From assembly GCA_002742885.1 (NCBI GenBank), contig PDOO01000028.1:22849-86848 (forward strand): a DNA stretch of 64,000 nucleotides. Direction: 5' to 3'. Position 1 is the first letter of the stretch; every line of letters starts with the position of its first letter. This DNA comes from Candidatus Cloacimonadota bacterium. GTDB lineage: Bacteria > Cloacimonadota > Cloacimonadia > Cloacimonadales > GCA-2742885. A program made the translations under genes and the position numbers. Shown piece by piece: positions 5,307 to 59,203 of this stretch. The notes under the pieces were generated by a model, which was not told the DNA's origin, searched no databases, and saw nothing but the letters and a program-made list of their open reading frames with translations.

Positions 5307-5323
5307 ATGGAATAATAATTGCT
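5307..5323 (+). promoter_or_regulatory. candidate sigma-54 promoter (TGG-N8-TTGC)
   Basis: aTGGaataataaTTGCt with GG at 5309-5310 and GC at 5321-5322. Spacing is exactly that of TGGCAC-N5-TTGC. It ends 26 nt before ATG 5348. The -24 half is weaker than consensus (TGGAAT). Confidence 0.4.
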
Positions 5324-5347
5324 TAACACTCATTTGAGGAGATTTTA

Positions 5348-5752
5348 ATGGGAACTAATCAAATATTCTTAATGCTTTTGGCAGTTCTGATTGTCGGTTT
5401 GGGGATTATGGCTGCTTTAATAAAAATTCAAGATAATATTTTAAATACCAACAAAGAGGCTATAATTTCTGACCTGGTTATGCTTGCAAATAAAGCTCAT
5501 AAATATAAGTTGATGCCTAAAAGTTACGGCGGAGGAAGCAACAGTTATAATGAAATGGAAATAGGTGATTTAGGAAGTTTGGCTTTTACGGATAACGAAA
5601 ATGCGCTTTATCATATTCTTTCCTTGAGTAATGACGAAGTTGTTATTCAGGCAAAAGGCAAAAAAGGAAAAATAGGTTGGATTATTAATTGTACGGTAGA
5701 TAATGACGGCAAGACAAAAGTTGAAACCATTCAAAAAGCCCGATTTAATTAG
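5348..5752 (+). CDS. pilin/pseudopilin-like small protein, paralog 1 (non-canonical MG leader)
   Basis: GAGGAG RBS 6 nt upstream. An in-frame TAA at 5324-5326, with no start codon between it and ATG 5348, rules out a longer N-terminus. About 22 hydrophobic N-terminal residues run into an amphipathic helix (NKEAIISDLVMLANKAHKY), followed by a Gly-rich loop and a beta-rich C-terminus. Alignable over its full length with ORF 5972..6373. Confidence 0.6.
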   Translation: MGTNQIFLMLLAVLIVGLGIMAALIKIQDNILNTNKEAIISDLVMLANKAHKYKLMPKSYGGGSNSYNEMEIGDLGSLAFTDNENALYHILSLSNDEVVIQAKGKKGKIGWIINCTVDNDGKTKVETIQKARFN

Positions 5753-5898
5753 CAATGGATTTTACCGCTTAATGTAATCTTATTGCGACTGGTGTAATTA
5801 TTTTATGACATTACTTTGGGGCAAAATAAAATAATTATTTCTTGTTATTTTTTTGTAAATTGTTATTATTTAAAGAAATTAATTGATAAATAATTTTT

Positions 5899-5916
5899 CC
5901 GGCACGCTAATTGCAT
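5899..5916 (+). promoter_or_regulatory. sigma-54 promoter (cGGCACG-N4-TTGCA)
   Basis: GGCACG at 5901-5906 and TTGCA at 5911-5915. This matches the TGGCACG-N4-TTGCW consensus at every core position except the first T. It lies 57 nt upstream of ATG 5972. Confidence 0.65.
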
Positions 5917-5971
5917 ATTATAAAGAGCAAATTTAGTAAAAACTAAAAAACTAAAAAAGAAGGAGACTATT

Positions 5972-6373
5972 ATGGGTCAACAGCAAATCTTACTTATTGT
6001 ATTAACCATTATCTTGGTTGGTATTGCAGTCAGCGTCGGTATAACGATGTTCAGAGATCAAACTTTACAGTCAAACAAAGATGCGATTATTGCTGATTTA
6101 ACAACTCTTGCTCAAAGAGCTTATCAGTACAGAATCAAGCCTGAGTCCATGGGCGGCGGCGGCGGCGACTACGATGATCTGGAACTTACAGATTTAGGTT
6201 CAGCCGAAATGACTAACAATGCAAATGCTCAGTATGTTTTAACTTCTGCGGCTGCAGATGAAGTTGTTATTACCGCAACAGGTAAAATAGGAGCAACTCC
6301 TTGGACTATTACATGCACTACTGACGGTGCTGGTAAGAATACAATTGATATAACAACTCAAGCTTCATTCTAA
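5972..6373 (+). CDS. pilin/pseudopilin-like small protein, paralog 2 (non-canonical MG leader)
   Basis: GAAGGAGA RBS. MGQQQILLIVLTIILVGIAVSVGITMF hydrophobic N-terminus, then NKDAIIADLTTLAQRAYQY amphipathic helix, GGGGG loop and a beta-rich C-terminus. A strong terminator follows. Confidence 0.6.
   Translation: MGQQQILLIVLTIILVGIAVSVGITMFRDQTLQSNKDAIIADLTTLAQRAYQYRIKPESMGGGGGDYDDLELTDLGSAEMTNNANAQYVLTSAAADEVVITATGKIGATPWTITCTTDGAGKNTIDITTQASF
6152..6166 (+). repeat. (GGC)5 in-frame trinucleotide repeat encoding Gly5
   Basis: Read directly. The codons are in frame with ATG 5972 (M-GGGGG-D). The paralog has GGG encoded by mixed codons at the same position. Confidence 0.9.
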
Positions 6374-6391: not shown

Positions 6392-6419
6392 AAAGCCTCC
6401 TTCGGGAGGCTTTTTTTTT
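6392..6419 (+). terminator. rho-independent terminator (GCCTCC-ttcg-GGAGGC + T9)
   Basis: Stem 6395-6400/6405-6410 with UUCG tetraloop, then a T-run 6411-6419. Confidence 0.9.
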
Positions 6420-6656
6420 CTGTTTTTCCTCTTTCATTATCCATAATTTTTGTTTTTTTTACATTTATTGTATTAAAAATTGAAATAACTGTTTCATATC
6501 TCTTCTTGACAAGAGTTGCTTTTATTTTCATTGGGTTTGTCGCCTTTTTATAAAAAGGAAAAGAATAAATTCAATCTAAAATATCGGATAAAACCGGAAT
6601 TGATTCTTTTTTGATCTTCCGAGTTATCAACCGGTAAAAATTCCAAGGAGAAAGGG

Positions 6657-9635
6657 ATGAAAGTTTTAAAAACCTTGAGCTTTATACTTATTTTAATGTT
6701 AACGGCTCAGATTTCTTTTGCCGTCTCCGGCAAGGTTACGGGAACAGTTAAAAATTCGGATAACGGTAAGAAAATTGCAAATGCCGCAGTTTTTTTGGTT
6801 GGAACGGAATTCGGCGATTATTCTGATGTTAAAGGTCATTTTTTAATTGAAAATGTTCCTGAAGGAGAATATTCCGTTCGTGTTACTCTTCTCGGATTTA
6901 AATCCGAAGACGTAAAAGTTAATGTTAAGGGAAATCAAACTCAAACCGTTAATATCAGCGTTAAATCAGCGGATGTTGAACTTGAATCTTTCACCGTTTC
7001 CGCTACGCGAGCCAAAGAACGCGAAACACCGGTTGCTTTCAGCAATGTTACGAAAGAAGAAATTTTAAATAAAGCGACTACCGAAGATATGCCGGAATTA
7101 TTGGATGATACACCGGGTTTATTTTCAAGTTCGACAGGTTTGGGAGAATCAGAAATTACCATGCGCGGTTTTGAAGCCGATAAAATCCAAATTTTGATTA
7201 ACGGCATTCCCGTAAATGATCCGGAAAGTCAAAAAGTTTATTGGTCAAATTGGACGGGAATTTCTTCCAATGCCAAGTCGGTTCAGGTTCAACGGGGAGC
7301 CGGTTCTTCGATGTACGGTTCCGGAGCATTCGGCGGATCTATCAATATTGAAACGATAGAAGCCGATCCTAAACATGAATTTACTTTAAGAACTTCCGGA
7401 GGATATTTTTTTACGGACGGAAAATCGGCAGACGGCAACGGAAATATAGACGATTATCGACCGGGCAATTATAATGTGCAGCTTAAATACAGCAGCGGAC
7501 ATCTCTATAGAGGAAAATTTAATTATAACTTAACTGCTGAACGTAAAGCCGGAGATTCTTATCTGCGGGGAACAGACTATGACGGTTGGTCTTTCGGAGT
7601 TGAAACTCAATCTGTATTCGGAGATCACAGTTTTAATCTCAGTTTTATCGGAGCTCCTCAGGAACATCATAACACTTATACAAAAAATGATGAAGAATTG
7701 ATGAAAGTTTTGGGACGAGAATATAATCGAGCCAATACTCCGGCTCAAAAAAATACTTATTATAAACCGCAAATATCTCTTCGTCATGAATGGACAATAA
7801 GCGATGAAAGCAAAGTTCTCTCTAATCTTTTTTATACTTCCGGAACCGGAGGCGGTCGTTATTGGTCGCAAGATAATTTTAATGTTGAGAACGGTGAGGT
7901 TACTCAAAAAGAATTATTTGACTGGGATGCTCAAAATGCCGCTTTCGGATCTCATGCTTTATACGTTTTCGAGCAAACAAACGGAGAATGCATGATGGAA
8001 GGATTTGAAGCGGATACATCTGCTGCCGGAACAGTAAAATATTATTATAACGGCAAGAGAATCAGAAGAGCTGATAATCTTTTCGCTTCTCCCAAACGTT
8101 ATGACATGACTTGGACAAATTATTCTGTAAGTAACCATAAACAATACGGATTTAATACTTATTATGAAAATCAAATTACGGACGGGTTTAAACTTATTAT
8201 GGGCGGAGAAGCTCGCTATTGGGATGCTGATCACTATCGAGAAATAGAAGATTTCCGTTACAACGCTTTGATTGACTCAGTGTACGAAGATGCCGATACC
8301 GTCGCTTTGGGAAATCATTCCGTGTTGGAAAGATCATACGATTACACCTCAAAAGTTTTGAATGCATCTGCTTTTGCCAGATTCCAGATTAAACCTGTTG
8401 ACGACGTAACATTGCTTTTGGACGGTCAGTTTGCGCGCTATTCTTCCGAAATAGAAGAAAATCCCATTAAATATTATGATTTAGAAACAGGCAACCCGAC
8501 GGATTTCTCTTATTACACTTCCAAAGAAGATAAAGATGAAAACGGTAACTTGAAATTTGACGAAGATGATTATAAAAAAGTTTTTAAATTTTTCTCTCCC
8601 AAATTCGGGGTGAATTGGAACCTAACTGAAGAAATTAACATGATTTCCAATTATTCCATAGCTTACAAAGAACCCAAAACCCGAGACTGGTATCACAGTT
8701 ACGACGGTCCCGACGGACGACAAATGTACACTGTCAGCAAGGTGAAAATGAACGAAGAAACCGGACTTTGGGAAGATTACGAGGAAGATGTTTATTACGG
8801 TGAACTTGATCCCGAACAAATAAATACCATAGAATTCGGTTTCGGTTACCATTCTTATATTTTCGGAGGAAAATTCAAATGCGGAGCAAATTACTATAAC
8901 AGTAAATATACCGATAAAATAGAACGAGCCGATATTTCCGTTGTCAATGAATACGCATCTCCGGCAGGCGACAGTACTTATACCGACGAAAGAAGCGCCT
9001 CTGTTACCATTAATGCCGGTAAAGCTCGCCATCAGGGCGTGGAAGCTGACTTCAGTTACAAACTCGGACAATGGGATGCGAACGGTTCCGCTACTTGGGC
9101 TCACAACCGCTGGATTTCGATGAGCGTAGGAGAAATTTTCGGAGTAAATTCTGAAGACATGAAAGATAAGACGGTTCCGTATTCTCCCGAAATAATGATA
9201 AATTCCGCTTTGGGATACACTTTTGATTTTAATAACGAATCTGACCTCAGAGTCGGCATGAATCATAAATATTGGGACGGCTATTATGCCAACCATGCAA
9301 ATGAATATGCCGTTTTCGGTGATCCTGAAAGTCAAGTAGCCACTGACACGCTTTCCTCTAAATTACCCGACTTCAGCGAATTTTCATTAAATTTAAGATA
9401 TGCTTTCAAACTTAACAACAAAGATTGTTCTGTCAGATTGGATATCAATAACGTTTTCAATCAGAAAAATTATTCTTCGGCAAGAGTATCGAAAGATTAT
9501 AACAGGGGTACTTATGTTGAAAACGAAGACGGAGAAACTGTTTGGGAATATGACGAATGGAGAGGTAAATATAAGCTTTATTACACTCCGGCTCCTTTAC
9601 TTAATCTGTTCCTGACCATGGAATATAAATTCTAA
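6657..9635 (+). CDS. TonB-dependent outer-membrane receptor with N-terminal CarboxypepD_reg-like domain
   Basis: Signal peptide, then the GKVTGTVKN..AAVFLVGT carboxypeptidase-regulatory-like fold. Plug motifs (ITMRGF, ILINGIPVND), a long beta-rich barrel and a C-terminal aromatic residue (..MEYKF). Confidence 0.9.
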   Translation: MKVLKTLSFILILMLTAQISFAVSGKVTGTVKNSDNGKKIANAAVFLVGTEFGDYSDVKGHFLIENVPEGEYSVRVTLLGFKSEDVKVNVKGNQTQTVNISVKSADVELESFTVSATRAKERETPVAFSNVTKEEILNKATTEDMPELLDDTPGLFSSSTGLGESEITMRGFEADKIQILINGIPVNDPESQKVYWSNWTGISSNAKSVQVQRGAGSSMYGSGAFGGSINIETIEADPKHEFTLRTSGGYFFTDGKSADGNGNIDDYRPGNYNVQLKYSSGHLYRGKFNYNLTAERKAGDSYLRGTDYDGWSFGVETQSVFGDHSFNLSFIGAPQEHHNTYTKNDEELMKVLGREYNRANTPAQKNTYYKPQISLRHEWTISDESKVLSNLFYTSGTGGGRYWSQDNFNVENGEVTQKELFDWDAQNAAFGSHALYVFEQTNGECMMEGFEADTSAAGTVKYYYNGKRIRRADNLFASPKRYDMTWTNYSVSNHKQYGFNTYYENQITDGFKLIMGGEARYWDADHYREIEDFRYNALIDSVYEDADTVALGNHSVLERSYDYTSKVLNASAFARFQIKPVDDVTLLLDGQFARYSSEIEENPIKYYDLETGNPTDFSYYTSKEDKDENGNLKFDEDDYKKVFKFFSPKFGVNWNLTEEINMISNYSIAYKEPKTRDWYHSYDGPDGRQMYTVSKVKMNEETGLWEDYEEDVYYGELDPEQINTIEFGFGYHSYIFGGKFKCGANYYNSKYTDKIERADISVVNEYASPAGDSTYTDERSASVTINAGKARHQGVEADFSYKLGQWDANGSATWAHNRWISMSVGEIFGVNSEDMKDKTVPYSPEIMINSALGYTFDFNNESDLRVGMNHKYWDGYYANHANEYAVFGDPESQVATDTLSSKLPDFSEFSLNLRYAFKLNNKDCSVRLDINNVFNQKNYSSARVSKDYNRGTYVENEDGETVWEYDEWRGKYKLYYTPAPLLNLFLTMEYKF

Positions 9636-23273: not shown

Positions 23274-24149
23274 ATGAATTCATTTATTTCGGTCAGACAA
23301 AAACTTCAGAAAATAGATAATTTGCCGACATTGCCTGCTGTGGCAGGTCGATTACTGGAGATTTTATCCTCGGACAATACTTCCATGTCTCAGATTGCCG
23401 ATATTTTGGCAACGGATCCTTCTCTTACCGGACGGGTTTTGAAAGTTTCCAATTCAGCTTATTTCGGAGTTACAAAAAAAATAGATACGATCAGGCTTGC
23501 TCTTGTTGTATTGGGAATGAAGGAAATAAACAATATTTTATTGAGTATTTCTTTATTTAAAACATTTGACGGAGTCGGGAAAAATTTTGATTTGAAAGAG
23601 TTTTGGTTACACTCCATTGCTGTCGGTTATTTATCGCAATACATTTTTAAACATTTCGGAATTTCTTCTCACGGAGAAGAATTTACTGCCGGGTTGATAC
23701 ATCAAATCGGTAAAATTATCCTGGAACAGTTTTTTCATGATGATTTTATTGAAATACTTGATTTGATAAATGATGAAAATTTGAGTGATTTGGAAGCGGA
23801 AGAAAAAGTCTTGGGCGTAACTCATCCCGACTTGGGAGCATGGCTGGCTCGTAAATGGCGTATTCCGGCTAATTTGGTTGAAGCAATAAGATATCACCGA
23901 ATGCCCGAATATGCTCAAAAAAATAAATTACTGCCTGCCGTTGTTAATATAAGCAATTCAATTGCCAATTATTACGAAATAGGGATGAGTACTGGCAAAG
24001 AACATTATGACCCGCATACAGCTCCGGGGTGGAAAATTATTGAAGAAAAGATAGAAAGAAAAATTAATCTCGAAGAATTTATTGAGTCGGTTGCCGATAA
24101 AAAAGAAGATATCATACAATACGCCGAATCAACTTTTAGAATAAAATAA
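23274..24149 (+). CDS. HDOD domain signalling protein
   Basis: LPTLPAVAGRLLEIL start and HS..VG..S, GLIHQIGK, THPDLGAWLARKWRIP motifs typical of HDOD (HD-related output domain). Confidence 0.85.
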   Translation: MNSFISVRQKLQKIDNLPTLPAVAGRLLEILSSDNTSMSQIADILATDPSLTGRVLKVSNSAYFGVTKKIDTIRLALVVLGMKEINNILLSISLFKTFDGVGKNFDLKEFWLHSIAVGYLSQYIFKHFGISSHGEEFTAGLIHQIGKIILEQFFHDDFIEILDLINDENLSDLEAEEKVLGVTHPDLGAWLARKWRIPANLVEAIRYHRMPEYAQKNKLLPAVVNISNSIANYYEIGMSTGKEHYDPHTAPGWKIIEEKIERKINLEEFIESVADKKEDIIQYAESTFRIK

Positions 24150-24172
24150 TTAAAATATTAAAGGATGTTTTT

Positions 24173-24550
24173 ATGGATATAAATTTTTTAGTTGTGGATG
24201 ACTCTCCCACTATGAGGAGAATTGTTATAAATACTCTCAAAAGATTAGGATATCGTTCTATCGAAGAAGCAGATAACGGACAAACTGCTTTGGATAAACT
24301 TAAAACAACCGAAGGCATTAATTTTATCGTTACCGATTGGAATATGCCTGTAATGGACGGACTTACTTTTGTAAAAACAGTCAGAAGTTCGCCTGAATTT
24401 GCCGATATCCCTATACTTATCGTAACTACCAGAAGCGTAAAGGATGATATTATCGAAGCCATGAAATCCGGAGTTAATAATTACGTTGTTAAACCTTTTA
24501 CGCCTGAAATCATGAAATCTAAAATAGAAACAATTCTCAGTAATCTTTAG
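24173..24550 (+). CDS. cheY: chemotaxis-type single-domain response regulator CheY
   Basis: Close match along the whole length to E. coli CheY as I remember it (FLVVDDSPTMRRIV, VTDWNMPVMDG, YVVKPFT). Confidence 0.9.
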   Translation: MDINFLVVDDSPTMRRIVINTLKRLGYRSIEEADNGQTALDKLKTTEGINFIVTDWNMPVMDGLTFVKTVRSSPEFADIPILIVTTRSVKDDIIEAMKSGVNNYVVKPFTPEIMKSKIETILSNL

Positions 24551-24558
24551 GAGGAATT

Positions 24559-25509
24559 GTGAGTAATGATACCGCTAAACGGGGAGTTTTACCGCTTATC
24601 GAAGAGTTAAAAGATGATTTCAATGCTCTTATGGAGGAAATGGCTCCTGAGATAGATAAAATGGAGTCTCGCGATCTTTCATCTCATTTCAGAAACCATT
24701 TTATAAGCATTTACAGTAAAATGAAAGAGCTTCCCGATAAGGTTGACCAAAGTTACGAGTTGGTTCAATCTGTAATAAAATCAATCCAATCTTCTCGGAG
24801 TGAACTGAAAAAAAGTGTGGACGGTTTGATAAAAAAAACCGGTATGCAATTACAGAAAATTACTTCCACTACAGAAGAAGCTACCAATAAAATACTCGAT
24901 ATTGCAGAAAAACTTGACGAAGATCAAGAAAAAATAATTGCTTTGATAGAAAAAATTGAAGCAGGTTCCGATAATGAAATATTTGCAGAGATTAAAGAAA
25001 AAATTTATAAAAATCAGGAATCGGCATTTACCATAATTGACTTTTTGCAATTTCAGGATATTACTGCTCAGCAAATTGCCGGCGCTTACGCCTTGCTTTC
25101 GGATACTGAAACTACTCTGCTTCGAGTTTCCAATTTGCTCAAAGAATTTGATGATAGAGAAACTGCCCTGAAAACTTTAAAAATTGATATTGATAGAAAT
25201 TCATTTAATTCGGATGCTGCTTTTTCCGATAAAAAAGATATACAAAACGCCATAGACGATATGTTTGAATCCCAAAATACTGATGTTGATATTCCGGATG
25301 ATAAAACATGCGTTAAAAAAATTTTGCCGAGTTCCGGTAAAGAAATTGATGAAAATTTTGATATTGACGCCTTGTTTGACAATAAGATGAAATCGGAAGA
25401 AAAATCATCTAAAGACGAAGATTTTGACATAGACGCCTTATTTAATAACAATAATAAAAAAGAAGAAAATAAGACTTCGCAAGATGAAATAGATAAATTG
25501 TTTGGATAA
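24559..25509 (+). CDS. CheZ-like CheY-P phosphatase with three C-terminal EIDAL-like peptides
   Basis: LQFQDITAQQI reproduces the CheZ active-site D-x3-Q (E. coli FQDLTGQ). Long predicted helical hairpin. C-terminal SQDEIDKLFG plus two internal [ND]FDIDALF repeats. GGAGG RBS. Confidence 0.65.
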   Translation: MSNDTAKRGVLPLIEELKDDFNALMEEMAPEIDKMESRDLSSHFRNHFISIYSKMKELPDKVDQSYELVQSVIKSIQSSRSELKKSVDGLIKKTGMQLQKITSTTEEATNKILDIAEKLDEDQEKIIALIEKIEAGSDNEIFAEIKEKIYKNQESAFTIIDFLQFQDITAQQIAGAYALLSDTETTLLRVSNLLKEFDDRETALKTLKIDIDRNSFNSDAAFSDKKDIQNAIDDMFESQNTDVDIPDDKTCVKKILPSSGKEIDENFDIDALFDNKMKSEEKSSKDEDFDIDALFNNNNKKEENKTSQDEIDKLFG

Positions 25510-25521
25510 AGTTGAGGAATT

Positions 25522-25887
25522 ATGACTAAAAATATTTTGGTTGTTGATGATGAAGAAAATATCCGTGAGATAATTTCGGAGTTTTTGCAGACATTGGGCT
25601 ATAATGTGGTTGAAGCATCTAACGGAGAAGAAGCTATAGTCGCTTGCAGCAAAACTAAATTTGATCTTATTTTATCTGATATACGAATGCCGAAAATGAA
25701 CGGATTGAAACTTTTGAAATCCATTAAAACTTATCGTCCTGATATGCCGGTTATTCTGATGACCGGTTATCAACCCTCGAAATCTCAGGAAGAAAGTTTA
25801 ACTACAAAAGCGGACGGTTATTTGCTTAAACCGTTTTCTCTTAACACATTAAGACAAGCTATCTTAAAAGTATTCAGAACTCTGTAG
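25522..25887 (+). CDS. single-domain response regulator (REC only)
   Basis: VVDDEE, LILSDIRMP, ILMTGY and LLKPF conserved REC residues. Confidence 0.9.
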   Translation: MTKNILVVDDEENIREIISEFLQTLGYNVVEASNGEEAIVACSKTKFDLILSDIRMPKMNGLKLLKSIKTYRPDMPVILMTGYQPSKSQEESLTTKADGYLLKPFSLNTLRQAILKVFRTL

Positions 25888-25894
25888 ATGTGAT

Positions 25895-26164
25895 ATGATA
25901 AATAATAAAATAATATCTAATTACGAAATTATTGATGATGATAAAGACCTTACCGGACAAAACCATCAAGTATATTCCGTTCCTAAAATTATTAAAAAGG
26001 CAATAATAGAAGAAGGGATTGAAGAACATATTTGCAAGGAACCTGATTTACCTGACAGAAATGTCAGGATTGAAGCTGTTCGCAATGAAAATAATGAAGT
26101 TGTAGGATTTGATATTGTTTGTAAATGCGGCGAGACTTTTAGTATTGAATTGGAATATGAGTGA
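25895..26164 (+). CDS. hypothetical 89-aa protein between the two REC genes
   Basis: An ORF with tight spacing on both sides: 7 nt after the upstream stop, and its own stop 3 nt before the next ATG. No motif recognised; C-terminal CKCGE. Confidence 0.45.
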   Translation: MINNKIISNYEIIDDDKDLTGQNHQVYSVPKIIKKAIIEEGIEEHICKEPDLPDRNVRIEAVRNENNEVVGFDIVCKCGETFSIELEYE

Positions 26165-26166
26165 GT

Positions 26167-26622
26167 ATGAAATTACTTATAGTTGACGATGAAATTAATT
26201 TAGCTGATTTATTGTCTGATTTCTTTCTGAAAAAAGAATACGAGGTCTTTTACGCTTCCACAGGGAGGGAAGCTCTGGCTGTTTGCAATAATGAAAAATT
26301 TGATATAGCTTTGGTGGATATGAAAATCCCTGACATAAGCGGTTTTGAAATAACATCAAACTTAAAAAAAATCAGTCCCGATTGCGTTGTTATTCTAATG
26401 ACCGGCTATCCTTATTCCGATTCTGATAAGGAAGCGATGAAAAACGGAGCTTCCGAATATATACTTAAACCTTTCAGCCTTAATGATTTGTGGGATTTAA
26501 TAGTGAAATATTTCGGAGAGGATAATAAAACTGCCGATTTGTCGGATAAACAAAACTTTAATGAACGGAGAAGAAAACAACATGTTCCTGACTCCTCTGA
26601 CAGAAAAATTTCGGAAATTTAA
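26167..26622 (+). CDS. single-domain response regulator (REC plus a basic tail)
   Basis: LLIVDDE, ALVDMKIP, ILMTGY and ILKPF motifs. Start placed at the ATG (MKLLIVDD) rather than the track GTG at 26161. Confidence 0.9.
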   Translation: MKLLIVDDEINLADLLSDFFLKKEYEVFYASTGREALAVCNNEKFDIALVDMKIPDISGFEITSNLKKISPDCVVILMTGYPYSDSDKEAMKNGASEYILKPFSLNDLWDLIVKYFGEDNKTADLSDKQNFNERRRKQHVPDSSDRKISEI

Positions 26623-26628
26623 TTCAGC

Positions 26629-27930
26629 ATGAAAAAATTAGGGATTAAAGAATTAACAGACGCTTTTCATAATTTTACCGATATTTTTGAAAAAATAGAG
26701 AAAACACATCAGGTTTTACAATCAAAAATAGATTTTTTGTCTTCTGAACTGGAAGAAAAAAATAAAGCTCTCGAAGGTGAGATAATTGAAGGCGGAAAAG
26801 TTAAAAACTTTTTGAATAATATATTGGAAAATATTTACAACGGAGTTATTGTTGTTAATGTGAAGGGAAAAATTACTTTGGCAAATAAAGCTGCCGAAGA
26901 AATAACCGGTTATTCAAAATCTTCTTTGATCGGGAAATCTTATAATCAGGTTTTTAATTATTCCGATTCTAAAAATAAATCAGCTCTTTATACTTTGACT
27001 ACGGGAAAAGAGTTTCATCATCGACAAAAAATTATCAGAACGGCAGAAGACGTTCAGTGTAACGTGGAGTTCAGCACCTCTTTGTTGCGAGATGAGAACG
27101 AGATTGTTTACGGAGCTATTGAGATGTTTAACGATATCTCGGAATTGCGTGAGCTGCAATCACGAATTACACAGGTGGAAACTTTGGCTGCTCTGGGCGA
27201 GATGGCTGCAAGCGTAGCTCATGAAATTCGCAATCCCTTGGGCGGCATCGGAGGATTTGCCGGATTGCTGGACAGGCAAATTCCTGCGGAAGACCCTAAA
27301 AAAGAACTGGTTAAACCCATAATAACGGGAGTTTCGAGATTAAATGATATTGTTTCCGATTTATTGACTTTTACCAGACCTCAACGCATTAATCCGGTTT
27401 GGGTTGATTTGAACGAAACTATTTCCGGAATCGTTGATTTTTTTAAATTCAGCCTTTCCGATATGGAAAAAGATGTCAGCGTTAATTTTGAGGTTCGCGG
27501 AACAGTTCCGAATTTATATTTGGATATTACTCTGTTTCAGCAGATAATGATAAACTTATTGAAAAATGCTTATGATGCTATTGATGATAAGGGAAGCATA
27601 ACCGTTTTAACAAAAATTGAAGTTCCCGATTCCATGAATGAAATTTTAAATGAAGAAGAGAAAGAAGAATTGTTGCAATTATTCAGTTTTGTTGAAATTT
27701 CCGTGTCGGATACGGGAAAAGGAATTGAACCTGAAAATTTAGCAAAACTTTTTAATCCTTTCTTTACTACAAAGGATGACGGTAACGGATTGGGATTGTC
27801 TATTTGCAAAAAGATAACTCAATTGCATAAAGGAGATATTAACGTTAAGTCGGTTGTAAACGAAGGAACAACATTTACCATAACATTGCCGTTGTATGAG
27901 AAATATGATGAGAAAAATACTGATAATTGA
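26629..27930 (+). CDS. soluble PAS-domain sensor histidine kinase
   Basis: No TM segment. N-terminal coiled coil and a PAS-like region. H-box SVAHEIRNPLGGI, N box LLKNAYDA and G boxes DTGKGI / GNGLGLS. Confidence 0.9.
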   Translation: MKKLGIKELTDAFHNFTDIFEKIEKTHQVLQSKIDFLSSELEEKNKALEGEIIEGGKVKNFLNNILENIYNGVIVVNVKGKITLANKAAEEITGYSKSSLIGKSYNQVFNYSDSKNKSALYTLTTGKEFHHRQKIIRTAEDVQCNVEFSTSLLRDENEIVYGAIEMFNDISELRELQSRITQVETLAALGEMAASVAHEIRNPLGGIGGFAGLLDRQIPAEDPKKELVKPIITGVSRLNDIVSDLLTFTRPQRINPVWVDLNETISGIVDFFKFSLSDMEKDVSVNFEVRGTVPNLYLDITLFQQIMINLLKNAYDAIDDKGSITVLTKIEVPDSMNEILNEEEKEELLQLFSFVEISVSDTGKGIEPENLAKLFNPFFTTKDDGNGLGLSICKKITQLHKGDINVKSVVNEGTTFTITLPLYEKYDEKNTDN

Positions 27931-29284
27931 TGATGAAGTTTTAATCAGAGGATTTATTTCCGGATTTTTTAAAACTTCAGAAACATATAAAAATTGCAAA
28001 GTTGATATTGCGGTTGACGGGGAAGAAGGAATATCCAAAATACGCGAAAATAAATATGACTTGATTTTTACGGATTTGAAAATGCCTCGTAAAACCGGAC
28101 TTGATGTATTGAAATTTGTGTCGGAGCATTCTCCGGAAACCGATACTGTTTTATTGACAGCTTACGGAGGAGGAGAAAGCGCTAAAAAAGCAATGGATTA
28201 CGGAGCTTACGAATATATTACCAAACCTATTGAAATATCTGAACTTGAATTAATTATAAAACGTATATTCGAGAGACGAGATTTGATTGCCGAAAACGAA
28301 TCCATGCAGAAAGAGCTTGAAGCAGGACGAATTTTTCCGAAAATGATTTACTCAAGTAAAGTCATGACGGAGATAATGGAGCTTATAAAACTTGTTGCTC
28401 CGACTTCATCAACCGTATTGATTACAGGAGAAAGCGGAACAGGTAAAGAGCTTATAGCCGAAGCTCTACATCATCTCAGTCCTCGAAAAAAACAAAATTA
28501 TATAAGAATAAATTGTGCCGCTTTGCCGGAACATTTGATAGAAAGCGAATTGTTCGGATTTGAAAAAGGAGCTTTTACCGGAGCCGTAAAGAGGACAAGA
28601 GGAAAATTTGAACTGGCTGACGGAGGTTCCATTCTTTTGGATGAAATCAGTGAGATGAACCTTGATTTGCAATCCAAACTTTTACGAGTTTTGCAAGAAA
28701 AAGAAGTTGCCAGAATCGGCAGCGAAAGTCCCGTAAAAGTTGATACGAGAGTGATAGCTACTTCCAACCGAGATTTGACTGAAGAGATTAAAAACGGGCG
28801 TTTCAGAGAAGATTTATTTTTTCGACTGAATATTGTTCCTGTTCATCTTCCTCCTTTACGAGAAAGAAAGAGCGATATTCCGGCATTGGTTGAAAAATTT
28901 GTCAAAAAAACTGCTTTTCAAGTCGGAGTCGGTAAAAAAACAATTAAATCTGAAGTTTTTGACTTATTGATGAAATATGATTGGCCGGGAAATATTCGAG
29001 AATTGCAAAACTCCATAGAACGAGCCATGATAACTACCCGTAAAGATGTATTGGATTTAAATTCTTTTCGTTTTTTGAATGTTAAAGGCTATGAAAGAGA
29101 AGAAAAAAATAATGTTTCGGAATCGTGCGGTTATGAGGGCATGACTTTAGCTGAAATAGAAAAGGATTTAATTTATAAAACTTTGGAAAAAACCGGAAAT
29201 AACAAGACTGAAACCGCTAAAATTCTCGGAGTTACGACCAGAACTTTGAGAAATAAGCTTAATCAATACGAACAGGAAGATTAA
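27896..29284 (+). CDS. sigma-54-dependent response regulator (NtrC-family enhancer-binding protein)
   Basis: REC (ILIIDDE, FTDLKMP, ITKPI), AAA+ (GESGTGKE, EKGAFTGA sigma-54 contact loop, ESELFG) and a C-terminal Fis-type HTH (NKTETAKILGVTTRTLRNKL). The start may be ATG 27905 or 27908. Overlaps the kinase stop. Confidence 0.9.
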   Translation: MRNMMRKILIIDDEVLIRGFISGFFKTSETYKNCKVDIAVDGEEGISKIRENKYDLIFTDLKMPRKTGLDVLKFVSEHSPETDTVLLTAYGGGESAKKAMDYGAYEYITKPIEISELELIIKRIFERRDLIAENESMQKELEAGRIFPKMIYSSKVMTEIMELIKLVAPTSSTVLITGESGTGKELIAEALHHLSPRKKQNYIRINCAALPEHLIESELFGFEKGAFTGAVKRTRGKFELADGGSILLDEISEMNLDLQSKLLRVLQEKEVARIGSESPVKVDTRVIATSNRDLTEEIKNGRFREDLFFRLNIVPVHLPPLRERKSDIPALVEKFVKKTAFQVGVGKKTIKSEVFDLLMKYDWPGNIRELQNSIERAMITTRKDVLDLNSFRFLNVKGYEREEKNNVSESCGYEGMTLAEIEKDLIYKTLEKTGNNKTETAKILGVTTRTLRNKLNQYEQED

Positions 29285-29292
29285 AATAAATT

Positions 29293-31002
29293 ATGCTTGC
29301 TTTTTTTATTGACTATAAACTTAAAAGTTATGAAAAAAAAATAAAGTATGCCATAGATTACGTGTGTTCCGTTTGCGGGTTTAATTATCGATATATCCTT
29401 AAAATGAGCGAATTAATGCCGAATGACATTCTTCTTTGTTATTCTTTGAATGAACCGACAAGCGAAGAATTGGCAAGGATCTCCGTAACGGGAATTACTT
29501 TTTATATTCCGGCTAACTTTATTTTGTTTGATTCTAAAGAATTTATTAAGTTTGTTAAAGGAAATCCGCGCAATTATCTTTATGAATTCAGATTGGATCA
29601 GAAAATTCCTGTTTTCGGAGAAAAACGATTTAAAAACCCGTTAAATCGTTATTCTTTGGGAGATGTTTTTATAGGAAAATTTAATTTTGATTTTTTCGGC
29701 AATATCTTTTTTAATTTAAATCTTTTGGAAGAGAGGCTTATTGGAGAAAAAAAAGATGCTCAAGGAAAATATCCGGATTCTTCTTATCTCTTGGGTGATT
29801 ATACCGATTATCCTTATATAAACGCATTAATTAAATTATTTGAGAATTTTATAGAAGAAGGAATTTCCGTATCAGGTCAATATCTTCTCAAAAAAGAAGT
29901 TTGGCCGGAAAAAGAAGAATTTGCCGTTGCCGTTATGCATTCTCTGAAGTCTTATCGAAAATGGGAGGGACTCAGTATTTTCACGGCTTTTGGAAAAGAT
30001 ATTCTAAAACTTTTTTCATCCAAATACAAAATGGCTTTCAAAAATATAATCGAAGAATTTAAATATGCTTTCAACAATGATGAACCTTATTGGAATTTCG
30101 GTGAGATGTTTTCTATTGAAGAAGAATATAATATTAACACTTCTTATTTTTTCAAAACCGATTTTGATAAGTCAGGTGATAAAGATTTGTATGAATTGGT
30201 TAACTATTTGAAAGAAAATGACCATGAAATAGGTCTGTTGGCTTCCGAAAAATCCATGAAAGATGAATTGCATAAAACGGAATGCGAAAGGTTAGAACAA
30301 AAAACTGATGTTGAAATTAAAGGCGTAAGACAGGTAAATAATTTTTTTGACAGAGAATATACCGTTCAAAATCACGGGAAAGCGGATTTCCTTTATGACG
30401 CTTCACTCGGTTTTTCTGAAAAATCGGGATTTAAAGGGGGAATAGCTTATCCTTTTAATTTTTATAATTTTTATCCGGGAAGGGAAAGTAAAGAGGATGA
30501 TATTCAGCAATATAAACAATTGGAAATACCGGTAATTTTTTCTGATGATCATCTTAGAATAAATGAATATGAATATTGTTCTTATGATGATGCTTCCATT
30601 TTGCTGAGAAGATATATCGGATACATAAAAAAGTTTAACGGTTTATTGACGCTGGATTTCAATCAGGAAAATTTTTATGACATTTCTTACGACAGAACTC
30701 TTTATTCGTTCGCTTTGGCAAAAATAAAAGAAAATAATACGTGGGTTGCTCCTTTGAATGAAATTGCGGAGTGGTGGCAAAAACGAAAGAGAGTTAAATC
30801 TTTTGCAACGGAAGAAGGCATAAAAATAGTTTTTTATGATGATATTAAATCCATTACTTTTTCGGTAAAAGGCATTGCTGAAATAAATTCCGTTAAAGGA
30901 GCTTCTCATTTCATTTCAGAAAATAAAGTTACTTTTACGGATGTAAAAAAGAAGCAGGAAGCTTTTATTATTTTGGATACTCCGCCGGAAGCGGTTGAGT
31001 GA
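29293..31002 (+). CDS. large uncharacterised protein, possibly polysaccharide-deacetylase-related
   Basis: 569 aa. The FNFDFFGNIFFNLNLLEE segment resembles the N-terminal domain seen on some deacetylase-like EPS proteins, from memory and unverified. First gene after the EBP, 8 nt downstream. Confidence 0.35.
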   Translation: MLAFFIDYKLKSYEKKIKYAIDYVCSVCGFNYRYILKMSELMPNDILLCYSLNEPTSEELARISVTGITFYIPANFILFDSKEFIKFVKGNPRNYLYEFRLDQKIPVFGEKRFKNPLNRYSLGDVFIGKFNFDFFGNIFFNLNLLEERLIGEKKDAQGKYPDSSYLLGDYTDYPYINALIKLFENFIEEGISVSGQYLLKKEVWPEKEEFAVAVMHSLKSYRKWEGLSIFTAFGKDILKLFSSKYKMAFKNIIEEFKYAFNNDEPYWNFGEMFSIEEEYNINTSYFFKTDFDKSGDKDLYELVNYLKENDHEIGLLASEKSMKDELHKTECERLEQKTDVEIKGVRQVNNFFDREYTVQNHGKADFLYDASLGFSEKSGFKGGIAYPFNFYNFYPGRESKEDDIQQYKQLEIPVIFSDDHLRINEYEYCSYDDASILLRRYIGYIKKFNGLLTLDFNQENFYDISYDRTLYSFALAKIKENNTWVAPLNEIAEWWQKRKRVKSFATEEGIKIVFYDDIKSITFSVKGIAEINSVKGASHFISENKVTFTDVKKKQEAFIILDTPPEAVE

Positions 31003-31016
31003 AATGAGCAGTAAGA

Positions 31017-32276
31017 TTGAAAAGAATTCTTTTTATTTCGTATTTTTTTCCGCCCTTGGGAGGTTCCGGCGTACAGCGTCCTGTCAAACAGGTTAAATAT
31101 TTTAGAAAAAAAGGCTGGAAAGTTGACGTTGTTTCCGTAAAAGACATTATTTTTAATTCCTTTGACGAAACTTTGCTTGATGATTGCGGAGATTTTGATA
31201 TTTTTCGCACTAAAACTTTTGATCCGATGGGCATTCTTTATCTTTTCCAAAAATCAAATTCCGTCGATAATAAAATTTATAACGGCACGAAAGAAAATTT
31301 AAAATCTTTGATCAGAACCTCTTTTCCCGTGGATGAAAAGATCGGTTGGTTTTTGCCGGCTGTTTGGAAATGTCTCTTGCTTATCGGAAAAAACAATTAT
31401 GATTTAATCTTTTCTTCCTGTTTACCTGCTTCTTCCGGGCTTATAGCTTATTTTCTGTCTGAAATTTCGGGCATAAAATTTGCCGTTGATTTTCGTGATT
31501 TATACTTTTTGAATCCTTATCCCCGTTTTTTGACTCCATTGCATAAATTCATAGGATTTCAATTGGAAAAAAGACTGATGATTCATGCTGAATTTATCGT
31601 AACTTCAACCCGTTCTTCCCGAGATGATTTGATGAAATTATACGGTAAACGTTACGGAAAAAAAATAATTTATTCTTATAACGGTTGGGATGAAGATGAT
31701 TTCAAGAGTGAAGTTTCGTCAAACAGCAATAAATTTACAATCAGATTTACGGGTAATTTATATTCCAATCAAACTTCCCTCTATTTTGTAAAAGCATTAA
31801 AGAAAATAAAAAAAGATAATCCTGAATTATTGGAAAATGTTGCAATAAATTTTGTCGGAAATTATTTCGCAAATGAAGCGGCTTACTTATCCGACAAGGA
31901 GTTTAAGGAATTAATTGAGATTACTCCTCAGGTTGAACACAGAGTTGCAATCGAAAAAATGCAGTCTGCCGATTTATTGCTTATTTTTTTGTCTTCCGTA
32001 AAAAGCGACGGCGTTGTTCCCGGAAAATTATTTGAATATCTACGCTCGGGAAGACCGATTTTCGGTATGGTTCCTCCGCAAGGAGAGTGTGCGGAATTAA
32101 TGCTTGAACACGGACATGAATTGATTTGCCCTCAGGAAAATGTTGATTTGATTATTAAAAATTTAAAAAAAATTCTGACGCATAAAGAATATTATAAACT
32201 AGTTTCTCGCAAATTCAATCCTCAATATTGTCGCCGAAATCAGATGAATGCAATCATGGAAAGGATAGAATGTTAA
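31017..32276 (+). CDS. glycosyltransferase (GT-B, GT4-like)
   Basis: MKRILFISYFFPPLGGSGVQR N-terminus and C-terminal VVPGKLFEYLRSGRPIFG (E-x7-E-region-like). Confidence 0.7.
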   Translation: MKRILFISYFFPPLGGSGVQRPVKQVKYFRKKGWKVDVVSVKDIIFNSFDETLLDDCGDFDIFRTKTFDPMGILYLFQKSNSVDNKIYNGTKENLKSLIRTSFPVDEKIGWFLPAVWKCLLLIGKNNYDLIFSSCLPASSGLIAYFLSEISGIKFAVDFRDLYFLNPYPRFLTPLHKFIGFQLEKRLMIHAEFIVTSTRSSRDDLMKLYGKRYGKKIIYSYNGWDEDDFKSEVSSNSNKFTIRFTGNLYSNQTSLYFVKALKKIKKDNPELLENVAINFVGNYFANEAAYLSDKEFKELIEITPQVEHRVAIEKMQSADLLLIFLSSVKSDGVVPGKLFEYLRSGRPIFGMVPPQGECAELMLEHGHELICPQENVDLIIKNLKKILTHKEYYKLVSRKFNPQYCRRNQMNAIMERIEC

Positions 32277-33169
32277 GATATTTTATTGCTGAGGTTAAGA
32301 AAAAAATTCTGTCTTTGATCGGTTCCGAAAAGATAAAAAATAAAATAAGATATTATTATAATTACAAAACTTTTAAAGAAGCCGAGAAGCTTGAAAAAAA
32401 AATTAAACGTTTAGCCGAAGAATCAACGGAATCCGGTATTTCCGGAAAAGACGACAATTTAATTGTTTCTATGACAACTTTCGGAAAAAGGACTGATAAG
32501 GTTTATTTGACGGTTGAAACGCTTTTCAGACAATCTGTAAAAGCCGATAAAATAATTCTTTGGCTGGCGAAAGATGAATTTAATCCGAATAATATTCCTG
32601 AAAGTTTAAAAAGGTGCATTAAACGCGGTTTAACTGTTGATTTTTGCAAAAATATCAGGTCTTATAAAAAATTGATTCCGACTTTGCGAAAATATTCAGG
32701 TTATAAAATCGTAACCGTTGATGACGATGTATTTTATCCCGAAAATTTTCTTGAGGATTTCGTTAAGGCATATGAAGATGATCCCGGTTCCGTATATTGT
32801 ACGAGAGCCAGAAAAATTCACTCCGACAGAGATTACGAGTATTGGGAAAATATAATAGAACCTGAGCGCGGACTTGATGTTATGCCTATCGGATGCGGAG
32901 GTGTTTTTTATCCTCCGGAAGTTTTTCATGAAGACATTTTGAAAGAAAATTTATTTTGGGAAATGGCGAGATTCGGAGATGATATTTGGTTTAAAGCCAT
33001 GACATTGCTCAATAATTATCCTTGCAAATTAATAAAAAAACAAAAAGACTTTCCTATTGTTCCGGACACTCAAAATTATGCTTTGTGGGATGATAATTTT
33101 TCGGGAAGAAACGATAAACAGATAAAAAAAGTGTTCGATTATTATAATTTATGGGAAAAATTTAAATAA
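32270..33169 (+). CDS. putative glycosyltransferase (capsule-locus type, DxD)
   Basis: IVSMTTFGKRTDKVYLTVETLFRQS..IILWLAKDEF and TVDDDVFYP motifs, as seen in capsule/O-antigen locus transferases. Start moved to ATG 32270, which gives an ATGTTAA overlap with the upstream stop. Confidence 0.5.
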   Translation: MLRYFIAEVKKKILSLIGSEKIKNKIRYYYNYKTFKEAEKLEKKIKRLAEESTESGISGKDDNLIVSMTTFGKRTDKVYLTVETLFRQSVKADKIILWLAKDEFNPNNIPESLKRCIKRGLTVDFCKNIRSYKKLIPTLRKYSGYKIVTVDDDVFYPENFLEDFVKAYEDDPGSVYCTRARKIHSDRDYEYWENIIEPERGLDVMPIGCGGVFYPPEVFHEDILKENLFWEMARFGDDIWFKAMTLLNNYPCKLIKKQKDFPIVPDTQNYALWDDNFSGRNDKQIKKVFDYYNLWEKFK

Positions 33170-33171
33170 AG

Positions 33172-37218: not shown

Positions 37219-37228
37219 ACGGGGAATT

Positions 37229-39381: not shown

Positions 39382-39428
39382 CTTCAGTAATATTTATTAT
39401 TTGGAGACAGATCGTTACGGGAATTTAT

Positions 39429-51956: not shown

Positions 51957-52216
51957 TGAAAAAATTTCTTGTAACTTTCTTGAATACTCATGCTTCCTTG
52001 AAAGCTAAAAAAGTTTTTTCGGATATTGATTGCGAAAATGAGTTTATTCCCGTTCCGAGATCAATAAGCTCTGAATGCGGATATTCTATGCTTATTTTAA
52101 TTGAAACGCATGAAAAACTTTTGACTCTACTGGAAAAAGAAAAGATAAAAATACGCCATATCTATTTATGCAAAGATGAGAACGGAGAAAGAAATTATGA
52201 AAAAATTAACGGTTGA
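51956..52216 (+). CDS. DUF3343-like small protein (putative Se/S carrier-associated)
   Basis: 86 aa with FLNTHASLKAKKV..IPVPRSISSECGYSM, the pattern typical of DUF3343. Starts on the last base of the selD TAA stop (TAATG overlap). Confidence 0.65.
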   Translation: MKKFLVTFLNTHASLKAKKVFSDIDCENEFIPVPRSISSECGYSMLILIETHEKLLTLLEKEKIKIRHIYLCKDENGERNYEKING

Positions 52217-52799: not shown

Positions 52800-52839
52800 C
52801 TTTAAATAAAAACATAAAATATTAAATTACGGAGGAATA

Positions 52840-53793: not shown

Positions 53794-53819
53794 AATTTTT
53801 TATTTTCGGGGGAGACGAG

Positions 53820-57128: not shown

Positions 57129-57146
57129 ATTTGCAACTCATTTGCA
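57129..57146 (+). promoter_or_regulatory. direct repeat ATTTGCA-N4-ATTTGCA upstream of the zur-znu operon
   Basis: Copies at 57129-57135 and 57140-57146, with 11-bp periodicity, about 40 nt upstream of ATG 57185. It is not a Fur-type palindrome. Confidence 0.2.
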
Positions 57147-57184
57147 TTTATTTATTTTGGCAACATCAAAAAAAAGGCAATAAA

Positions 57185-59195: not shown

Positions 59196-59203
59196 GGATT
59201 AAA

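Follow-up and report, generated by a model that had tools for sequence, protein, structure and literature searches.

Tandem genes for probable PilA-type major pilins with a non-canonical N-terminus in a Candidatus Cloacimonadota bacterium

Two adjacent genes in a 64-kb stretch of Candidatus Cloacimonadota DNA (the window) very probably encode PilA-type major type IV pilins of a T4aP-like system that is specific to the FCB superphylum. The initial annotation regarded the products as divergent, pilin-like filament subunits without a canonical prepilin motif. This assignment is supported by the predicted fold, the conservation of the N-terminus, and the linkage of related genes to pilC and pilB. 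Both genes are on the forward strand. Paralog 1 (5348..5752; 134 aa, beginning with MGTNQIFLML) is a divergent, fast-evolving copy, and paralog 2 (5972..6373; 133 aa, beginning with MGQQQILLIV) is a conserved copy that matches the family consensus. As initially annotated, they are tandem paralogs that align over their full length, with 42% identity and no gaps from end to end (E=5e-34). Paralog 2 shares 64% identity with a protein from a Ca. Cloacimonadales MAG, and paralog 1 shares just 39% with the upstream paralog of the closest relative.

In both window proteins, MG is immediately followed by a hydrophobic helix. No basic residue precedes this helix, and no acidic residue is present among residues 1-28 of either protein. 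A C-terminal disulfide D-region is lacking, there being a single Cys. An in-frame TAA is located upstream of each gene (5324-5326 for gene 1 and 5921-5923 for gene 2), and the interval between this stop and the ATG contains no ATG, GTG, or TTG in either gene. These stops exclude a longer N-terminus, as had been concluded for paralog 1, and the same applies to paralog 2. The strong ribosome-binding sites previously noted were located on the forward strand as GGAG-type sequences, namely, GAGGAG (5336..5341) for paralog 1 and (A)AGGAG(A) (5959..5965) for paralog 2, each read from the sequence and 6 nt from the ATG. The UUCG-loop terminator described after the second gene was also recovered. It spans 6392..6423 on the forward strand and consists of a hairpin with a 9-bp stem (6392-6413) and a subsequent T-run. 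No terminator was found between the two paralogs.

The AF2 models of paralogs 1 and 2 (pLDDT 90.2 and 89.3, respectively) both show one unbroken N-terminal helix of ~54 residues (3-55 and 2-55, respectively) packed on a four-stranded sheet, which is the lollipop fold of type IV pilins. The models bear out the layout that had been read from the sequence, including an extended helix packed on a beta-sheet, the absence of which had been named as counter-evidence. In Foldseek searches, the best match of paralog 2 was PilV of N. meningitidis (5v23; probability 0.99). The best PDB matches of paralog 1 were PilV (5v23; probability 0.97), PilA4 of Thermus (6xxd), and PilA of P. aeruginosa (8v7p and 6bbk; TM of ~0.5), and four of its five top matches were type IV pilins. 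E-values for paralog 1 were just 0.01-0.3, and no Foldseek E-value was below 1e-3.

Profile searches did not identify a match above the Pfam or NCBIfam cutoffs for the window proteins, and no pilin model of either database detects the family. N_methyl (PF07963) matched 0 of 110 members and was not among the 25 most frequent families at E<=1, and neither T2SSG/TIGR01710 nor any NCBIfam model was matched. The similarities obtained to ComP_DUS (E=0.034; 10 of 110 members at E<=1) and to Geobacter PilA (E ~0.09) were sub-threshold. A confident match to an unrelated family, which the initial annotation had listed as evidence against a pilin, was not found.

The survey of related genomes revealed a large family of ~2,300 clusters at 50% identity (2,319) distributed throughout the FCB superphylum, which comprises Cloacimonadota, Ignavibacteriota, Bacteroidota, Calditrichota, Kryptoniota, KSB1, and Gemmatimonadota. 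The MG start is not peculiar to the window; it was present in 246 of the 267 family representatives retrieved, among which Gly2 was found in 246 of 246 and Gln5 in 245 of 246. A class III leader is short and basic with Gly at -1, whereas only M-G precedes the helix in this family, which has an invariant Gln5 and neither Phe/Met at +1 nor Glu at +5. The N-terminal hydrophobic segment of ~24 residues is near-invariant, and the majority-residue fraction was 0.78 for residues 1-27 versus 0.36 for the head. Conservation is thus highest in the N-terminal segment, a pattern that is typical of the core of a pilin filament and atypical of a disposable signal anchor, the interpretation that had been put forward as a possible refutation. 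Tandem copies (2-4) of the family gene were found in 28 of 82 loci. We did not find a description of this family in the literature ('leaderless pilin', FCB pilins), and no filament composed of the family protein has ever been observed.

Genetic association with ATPase, platform, and secretin genes was found for the family in relatives and not in the window itself. Of 82 related loci, 52 have a family gene and pilC no more than 10 kb apart, and in 45 of these 52 pilC-containing loci the distance is at most 500 nt (median gap of 204 nt). The strongest support for the pilin assignment comes from relatives in which a complete T4aP-like cluster has the family gene immediately upstream of pilC and pilB; in MAGs of a Melioribacteraceae member and of I. 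album, family genes likewise directly precede pilC. The gene order is kept across phyla: pilin gene(s), pilC, pilB, three leaderless minor-pilin-like genes, pilT, pilM/N-like genes, and the secretin gene. T2SSF and T2SSE domains are present in the machinery. The best match of the 595-aa ATPase was type IV-A PilB, and the 414-aa ATPase passed the NCBIfam PilT/PilU cutoff (339.6 versus 319.1 bits). The secretin matched PF00263 (E=7e-30), matches to PilN and PilM-like proteins were weak, and an uncharacterised membrane protein of ~293 aa is also encoded. Each cluster has 1-4 tandem major-subunit genes, and a PilS/PilR-like pair is a neighbour in some loci.

The three minor-pilin families start with MxTGQ (unk163), MxxxLD (unk150), and MG[RK]. 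In unk163, an invariant Gly at position 4 immediately precedes a conserved Gln, and many unk150 members (MSTLLD..., MASMLD...) have no Gly. One minor pilin carries Glu5, and one Cloacimonadota minor pilin has Gln at position 4, not 5. The large minor pilin in Cloacimonadota contains an adhesin-like domain (DUF7305 and pAdhesive_15).

We propose the following mechanism. The hydrophobic N-terminal helix would insert the pilin into the inner membrane, and, judging by gene linkage in relatives, the PilC platform and PilB ATPase would extract and polymerise the subunit. A PilM/N-like fusion and the ~293-aa membrane protein, which is possibly PilO-like, may support assembly. The fibre would exit via the PilQ-type secretin and be retracted by the PilT-family ATPase, and the three equally leaderless minor pilins may prime or tip it. 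The two window paralogs may replace each other as major subunits or assemble together; presumably, the downstream protein is the conserved core pilin and its upstream counterpart a rapidly diverging variant.

Consistent with the initial annotation, tblastn and Pfam annotation did not identify homologues of T2SSE, T2SSF, PilM-like proteins, or minor pilins in the 64-kb window. A G[F/M]xxxE prepilin motif is likewise absent from it, as is any additional MGxxQ paralog. The window pair is an orphan, and its putative machinery would have to be elsewhere in the genome. This arrangement is normal in Cloacimonadota; two machinery loci of this phylum (L091 and L092) have no adjacent major pilin and the closest relative likewise carries an orphan pilin pair. 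The 3.68-Mb contig of the closest relative was not among the matches to a minor pilin or PilC. We noted that L091 is from the same assembly and has the same GC content as this contig, which is suggestive only. The genes upstream of the window pair are, as stated initially, nucleotide-sugar genes (Epimerase_2, an NAD-dependent epimerase, a UDPG_MGDP dehydrogenase, and a GFO_IDH_MocA oxidoreductase). However, neither the closest relative nor the other loci share this association, and a functional link, such as pilin glycosylation, was rejected because the neighbourhoods differ.

The initial annotation assigned each gene its own promoter. A putative element precedes each gene; however, these elements are best read as sigma-54 -24/-12 promoters, not sigma-70 promoters. 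Sequences were scored against TGGCAC-N5-TTGCW (-24 GG and -12 GC; 11 consensus positions). The element of paralog 2 (5901..5915, forward strand; GGCACGCTAATTGCA) matches 10 of 11 positions, with 57 nt between the final motif base and the ATG. The element of paralog 1 (5309..5323, forward strand; GGAATAATAATTGCT within TGGAATAATAATTGCT) is the weaker of the two, with 9 of 11 positions, and would give a 5' UTR of only ~14 nt. Since ~1.8% of control ORFs score at least 9, this site alone is no more than suggestive. The upstream paralog in locus L002 has an equivalent element. Scores of at least 10 were found upstream of 10 of 121 family genes versus 5 of 1268 other ORFs. Near-perfect elements were present in all Cloacimonadota loci (L012, L014 with three, L050, and L002 with two), and the motif was missing from most family members outside this phylum.

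Domain annotation identified a PAS-HisKA sensor kinase and an NtrC/PilR-type sigma-54 activator (receiver, Sigma54_activat, and HTH_8) at 26629..29284 on the forward strand, the activator gene being at 27896-29284; rpoN was not found in the window. The kinase and activator are candidates for regulating the pilin promoters, but they may instead control the adjacent EPS cluster. A similar pair is directly downstream of the pilin pair in locus L005. The response regulators of the window and L005 share 39% identity, which is no higher than the generic level of the NtrC family, and we make no claim of orthology. The motifs suggest that each window gene has a sigma-54 promoter of its own, presumably controlled by a two-component system resembling PilS/PilR.

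The family resembles the T4a major pilins (PilA/PilE) in its lollipop fold, with an alpha1 of ~53 residues and a four-stranded antiparallel sheet, in its conserved hydrophobic alpha1N and variable head, and in its gene position directly upstream of pilC/pilB in a cluster with pilT, pilM/N, and a secretin gene. Tandem paralogs, putative sigma-54 promoters, and a PilS/PilR-like pair in some loci are further similarities. In contrast to T4a major pilins, the family lacks the basic leader, the Gly|Phe junction, Glu5, the C-terminal disulfide D-region, and an N_methyl match, and the clusters examined contain no prepilin peptidase gene.

The proteins may instead be pseudopilins of a T2SS-like secretion or Com-like DNA-uptake machine that build a short periplasmic piston and no extracellular pilus, which we consider improbable. 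Their size of ~133 aa and the D-L..L..A..Y segment, which the initial annotation compared to GspG, align weakly to E. coli GspG (b3328), a protein of similar length (hhalign P ~0.01, sub-threshold). Family residue n corresponds to mature GspG residue n-3 in alpha1 (G17=G14, D42=D39, and Y53=Y50), which places Glu5 of GspG opposite the invariant Leu8. The weak ComP_DUS matches in a few members and the label PulG given to a few members by JGI point in the same direction, as does the Bacteroidetes 'T2SS', a secretion system that Denise et al. (2019; PMC6668835) placed within T4aP. However, the PilT/PilU-family retraction ATPase scores above a curated cutoff, the clusters have 1-4 tandem major-subunit genes and lack GspC, GspL, and GspM, and the large minor subunit includes a domain resembling adhesins. 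The combination that characterises GspG (a profile match, GspC/L/M together with H-K, and no PilT) was not found, and E. coli GspG itself differs in having a 9-residue basic leader and a GFTLLE box, in needing GspO, and in working without a retraction ATPase. The resemblance to GspG is thus limited to a weak alignment, whereas the machinery is of the T4aP type with PilT and not of the T2SS type.

The 'T2SS' of Cytophaga hutchinsonii (CHU_3191-3202; PMC5553014), the major pilin of which Denise et al. (2019) describe as very divergent, is similar to the family system in that it belongs to the FCB group, is derived from T4aP, and has a secretin, an ATPase, a platform, and PilM/N/O-like proteins. 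However, its GspG was recognised by BLAST and KEGG, a Peptidase_A24 (CHU_3197) is encoded inside the cluster, and the paper describes no PilT there and a role in secretion and cellulose use (PMC5553014). The family system combines MG-start pilins with a PilT-family ATPase, and A24 genes were not found in it. We rejected an identity of the two because the Cytophaga cluster has a canonical GspG and Peptidase_A24; it is a different system and also argues against pseudopilins. It is very unlikely that the proteins are not filament subunits at all, but small signal-anchored or Sec-cleaved periplasmic or surface proteins for which the pilin shape and proximity to pil genes are coincidental. In favour of this explanation, the window pair adjoins no pil gene, the neighbourhoods of family genes vary among genomes, the head domain is also found in larger proteins with ordinary signal peptides, and no pilin HMM reaches its threshold. 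It is opposed by the distance of at most 500 nt to pilC in most pilC-containing loci and the single continuous 54-residue helix in the models. Moreover, a near-invariant hydrophobic N-terminus of 24 residues is inexplicable for a cleaved signal peptide or simple anchor. A cleaved Sec signal peptide or lipoprotein was also rejected since there is no lipobox Cys, the segment is too conserved, and it is modelled in one continuous helix.

The N-terminus of these pilins is non-canonical and probably unprocessed, and we consider the chances to be approximately even that no prepilin peptidase acts on it and that at most a formyl group or Met is removed. Neither a prepilin peptidase nor a canonical G|FxxxE protein was found in 1.38 Mb of family and machinery loci. 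No A24 peptidase was detected in 79 family loci, two machinery loci, or the window by regex or by jackhmmer with E. coli GspO as the seed; these searches covered ~10 kb around family and machinery genes and included no A24 peptidase from the FCB group as a positive control. pilD was reported to be absent from the complete M. roseus genome (PMC3534657). We more tentatively speculate, at somewhat less than even probability, that this family and the three minor-pilin families form the first type IV filament system without a class III signal peptide that is assembled without a prepilin peptidase. A Met/Gly-Gln-Gln-Gln cap, possibly formylated, and Gln5 would then replace the pair of N-methyl-Phe1 and Glu5 in the core. 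The invariance of Gln5 and the Glu5 of one minor pilin make an equivalence of Gln5 with Glu5, and of Met1 with Phe1, attractive. However, the hhalign and HMM alignments with GspG and Geobacter PilA give an offset of 3, with Glu5 opposite Leu8, and the minor pilin with Gln at position 4 also weakens this equivalence; we keep it only as a possibility. An MG myristoylation signal of the eukaryotic style was rejected because, to our knowledge, no bacterial enzyme for it exists.

The same pilins may alternatively be processed, which appears possible but doubtful. A peptidase encoded elsewhere, of the A24 or a new type, would cleave MG|QQQ... and MxTG|Q..., and a leader of 1-3 uncharged residues would be removed to leave a mature Gln, possibly as pyroglutamate or methylated as in some archaeal pilins. 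Gly2, which is invariant among the MG-start members (one family member has Ala2), would fit a cut after Gly, as would the invariant Gly directly before the conserved Gln of unk163. The Gln at position 4 in one Cloacimonadota minor pilin shows some latitude in the distance to Met1. In archaea, EppA cuts its substrates at G|Q, and Glu5 is absent in many archaeal pilins and archaellins (EppA/FlaK substrates, such as those of Methanococcus maripaludis with Gln at +1). A Gly-Gln junction is possible and a pyroglutamate N-terminus conceivable in the family. However, archaeal pilins and archaellins have basic leaders and need a dedicated A24-type peptidase, and their FlaI/FlaJ-like machinery, with no secretin and no PilT, is in its details unrelated; no sequence similarity of the family to archaeal pilins was detected. 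The A24 peptidase of some FCB bacteria, which is encoded in a separate T2SS-like cluster (Cytophaga CHU_3197; PMC5553014), could act in trans on the family pilins. Against processing stand the A24 search results, the M. roseus genome, and the variable position of Gly, which is at 2 in the major pilins and 4 in unk163 and missing from many unk150 members. Furthermore, no prepilin peptidase substrate is known to have a leader this short that lacks a basic residue.

Type IV filaments are defined by pilins with a class III signal peptide, and PilFind, N_methyl, and TIGR02532 key on this signal peptide. Genome annotations missed the present family because its subunits have no cleavable leader and no Gly|Phe...Glu5 motif, features that are taken to mark all type IV pilins. 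The whole FCB superphylum, comprising environmental, gut, and bioreactor bacteria, would thus have T4aP-like machines with subunits invisible to pilin-finding tools, and pilus-dependent traits, including polymer adhesion, twitching, DNA uptake, and possibly electron transfer, would be under-called in FCB genomes and MAGs. An HMM constructed from the family alignment could annotate more than 2,000 protein clusters that are now labelled hypothetical. If no prepilin peptidase is needed, the family would be a natural experiment on the roles of the leader, N-methylation, and Glu5 in assembly. Leaderless assembly, if true, would break a rule held to be universal among type IV filaments, a superfamily that includes bacterial pili, T2SS, and archaella. 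In all likelihood, the family pilins are the principal subunits of a retractable type IV pilus on the cell surface in a large group of environmental bacteria.

The two genes, gene 1 at 5348-5752 and gene 2 at 5972-6373, both on the + strand, are open reading frames of 134 and 133 aa. Their products align without gaps over the full length (42% identity, E=5e-34), in agreement with the initial annotation of tandem full-length paralogs. An in-frame TAA lies upstream of gene 1 at 5324-5326 and of gene 2 at 5921-5923, with no intervening ATG, GTG, or TTG in either case; therefore, both starts are fixed at M-G, and the exclusion of a longer N-terminus, originally made for gene 1, also applies to gene 2. 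The strong ribosome-binding sites and UUCG-loop terminator described initially were also found, as a GGAG-type site 6 nt 5' of each ATG and a hairpin with a T-run at 6392-6413, 3' of gene 2. Neither a G[F/M]xxxE motif of the canonical prepilin type nor a third paralog occurs anywhere in the window (35.5% GC). The gene 2 product is the conserved copy: it is 64% identical to the corresponding protein of a Ca. Cloacimonadales MAG, the closest relative, whereas the gene 1 product shows 39% identity to its counterpart and evolves much faster. These identities suggest that the pair consists of a core major pilin (gene 2) and a variable alternative subunit (gene 1).

The AlphaFold2 models of the paralogs are confident (pLDDT 89.3 for gene 2 and 90.2 for gene 1, pTM 0.74); each contains one unbroken helix from residue 2 or 3 to 55, and the remainder comprises a Gly-rich loop, two short helices, and four beta-strands. 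The top Foldseek matches in the PDB were type IV pilins, at E-values of only 0.01-0.3: N. meningitidis PilV 5v23 (probability 0.99 and 0.97 for the two paralogs), Thermus PilA4 6xxd, P. aeruginosa PilA 8v7p and 6bbk (TM about 0.5), and an Acinetobacter T4P subunit. The lollipop layout proposed from the sequence is thus borne out by the predicted structures. Pfam and NCBIfam gave no match above the cutoff (best, ComP_DUS, E=0.034). N_methyl was not among the families listed for a scan of 110 family members, and the best matches of the profile to PDB sequences, Geobacter PilA (E ~0.09) and Thermus PilA5 (E ~0.4), were non-significant.

A search with the gene 2 product matched 441 proteins, and a profile search of a representative library (50% identity clusters) returned 2,319 at E<=1e-3 and 1,612 at E<=1e-10. 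Members are labeled 'hypothetical' at the source, with a few named PulG or PilE by JGI. An MG start was present in 246/267 retrieved sequences; among these 246, G2 is found in 100%, Q3 in 230, Q4 in 242, and Q5 in 245, and residues 6-24 are almost invariant (consensus MGQQQLLLIILGVIIVGIAIAVG). The majority-residue fraction decreases from 0.78 (residues 1-27) to 0.51 (residues 28-56) and 0.36 (head), a pattern that would be expected of a pilin. The head domain (profile positions ~30-118) also occurs in 2-5 tandem copies within longer proteins (P0121 [581 aa], P0122, P0123, P0125, P0127, P0140, P0143, and others). Since an ordinary Sec or lipoprotein-type signal peptide replaces the MG pilin helix in these proteins, secreted proteins other than pilins have reused the pilin head. 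One family member (L013, JBBAFS010000056.1) falls outside the FCB group, its contig being binned as Sphaerochaetaceae (Spirochaetota); this could reflect mis-binning or horizontal transfer.

The window pair lies between nucleotide-sugar genes and the gene of a TonB-dependent receptor; the closest relative retains the tandem pair, but its neighbours are quite different. The neighbourhood is not conserved. The receptor (992 aa, N-terminal CarboxypepD_reg; 6657-9635), directly 3' of the pilin terminator, is of a type typical of the FCB group and is not kept beside the pilins in relatives.

Across 82 loci (79 genome loci plus earlier loci), a pilC homologue was located within 10 kb of a family gene in 52, at a distance of <500 nt in 45 of these 52 (median gap 204 nt), and 2-4 tandem family copies were present in 28. 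Family genes are directly 5' of pilC in a Melioribacteraceae MAG (L083) and an I. album MAG (L030), and loci L003 and L004 carry four tandem copies followed by T2SSF, T2SSE, three unknowns, a second T2SSE, and more genes. From Cloacimonadota to Gemmatimonadota, the order is pilin(s), pilC, pilB (~595 aa), three pilin-like genes, a pilT-like ATPase (~410 aa), a PilM/N-like fusion (~520 aa), a membrane protein (~293 aa), and a secretin. Profile scans detected T2SSF and T2SSE domains and matched the secretin to PF00263 (E=7e-30). The long ATPase best matched type IV-A PilB, and a 414-aa ATPase exceeded the curated PilT/PilU cutoff (339.6 vs 319.1 bits). Judging from these profiles, the machine is of the T4aP type with a retraction ATPase rather than a T2SS. 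No major pilin gene adjoins the machinery in the Cloacimonadota loci L091 and L092; therefore, it is normal in Cloacimonadota for a pilin pair to be an orphan, as it is in the window.

Cloacimonadota pilus clusters also encode a T2SSE-family ATPase (512-516 aa; L014:2787-4331(-), L091:15490-17028, L092:15670-17220) that is fused at its N-terminus to a response-regulator receiver domain, which suggests that phosphorylation directly controls an assembly or retraction motor. In several Ignavibacteria-type loci (L003:3873-9016(-), also L076, L021, L030, and L083), the region 5' of the pilins encodes two large proteins of the multi-TM/TPR kind (634 and 653 aa); their N-termini resemble glycosyltransferase-39/PMT-type membrane proteins, and they could be pilin-modifying enzymes.

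In the three minor-pilin-like families, the hydrophobic segment starts right at the N-terminus, as in the major pilins. One family begins with M-x-[T/L]-G-Q, the Q being replaced by E in a single member, another with M-x-x-x-L-D, and the third with M-G-[R/K] or M-F-G-K. The non-canonical N-terminus is a trait of the whole pilus system. In 1.38 Mb of loci and the window, we found neither a canonical G|FxxxE N-terminus nor, by a GxGDxK-plus-TM criterion or by jackhmmer seeded with E. coli GspO, an A24 prepilin peptidase. The large MG-start minor pilin of Cloacimonadota (L014:1373-2569; also P0268-P0280) carries DUF7305 and pAdhesive_15, an ice-binding-like adhesive domain, and is likely a tip adhesin; its Ignavibacteria and Kryptoniota counterparts show a weak DUF4900 match only.

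Three registers of the N-terminus are possible. Counting from Met1 would make Q5 the Glu5 equivalent of a leaderless pilin, while cleavage may instead occur after the invariant Gly2 (MG|QQQ). Alternatively, family residue n may correspond to canonical residue n-3 (G17=G14, D42=D39, Y53=Y50), which places Glu5 opposite the invariant Leu8; both the hhalign comparison with GspG and an HMM-based alignment with Geobacter PilA yielded this register. We favour pilins without endoproteolytic processing because the clusters contain no peptidase gene, the Gly position differs between subunit families, with Gly missing in many members of one, and the N-terminal length is almost fixed.

Putative sigma-54-type elements (GG-N10-GC) precede gene 1 (5309-5323, +) and gene 2 (5901-5915, +), scoring 9/11 and 10/11 against the consensus TGGCAC-N5-TTGCW. 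The element precedes both genes of the closest relative, and a near-perfect copy is present in every Cloacimonadota locus. Scores >=10 were obtained upstream of 10/121 family genes vs 5/1268 other ORFs. In L005, genes for a PAS-HisKA kinase and a sigma-54 activator come after the pilin pair; such genes are also found at 26629-29284 of the window, as candidate regulators only. They lie in a signalling and exopolysaccharide block (23274-41642). Besides the kinase and the activator (27896-29284), this block encodes an HDOD protein and three response regulators that consist of a single domain. Glycosyltransferases, a flippase (Polysacc_synt), and an initiating transferase (Glycos_transf_4) are encoded next, at 31017-39381, and a hybrid histidine kinase at 39429-41642; ORFs 29293-31002, 32228-33169, and 33172-34755 had no Pfam match. 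Elsewhere, the window contains a selenium or sulfur-carrier cluster (51009-54233; SelD-like AIRS, Se_S_carrier, TusA/DsrE, an unknown 317-aa protein, and a 2-thiouridine desulfurase-like protein) and, at 57131-60019, a ZnuA/ABC/ABC-3 operon for metal uptake that comes after a Fur-family regulator.

The previously described Bacteroidetes 'T2SS' of Cytophaga encodes an A24 peptidase within its cluster, and its GspG can be recognised as such (PMC5553014; PMC6668835); it is, therefore, a different system from the FCB pilus cluster. By sequence, the pair lacks the features that define type IV pilins, and the pilin question is decided by the genomic context of the family, the pilus cluster in relatives. 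The initial reading is upheld: based on the predicted fold and genomic role in relatives, the products are probably type IV pilins. The family represents a widespread, FCB-specific pilin variant that current annotation has missed.
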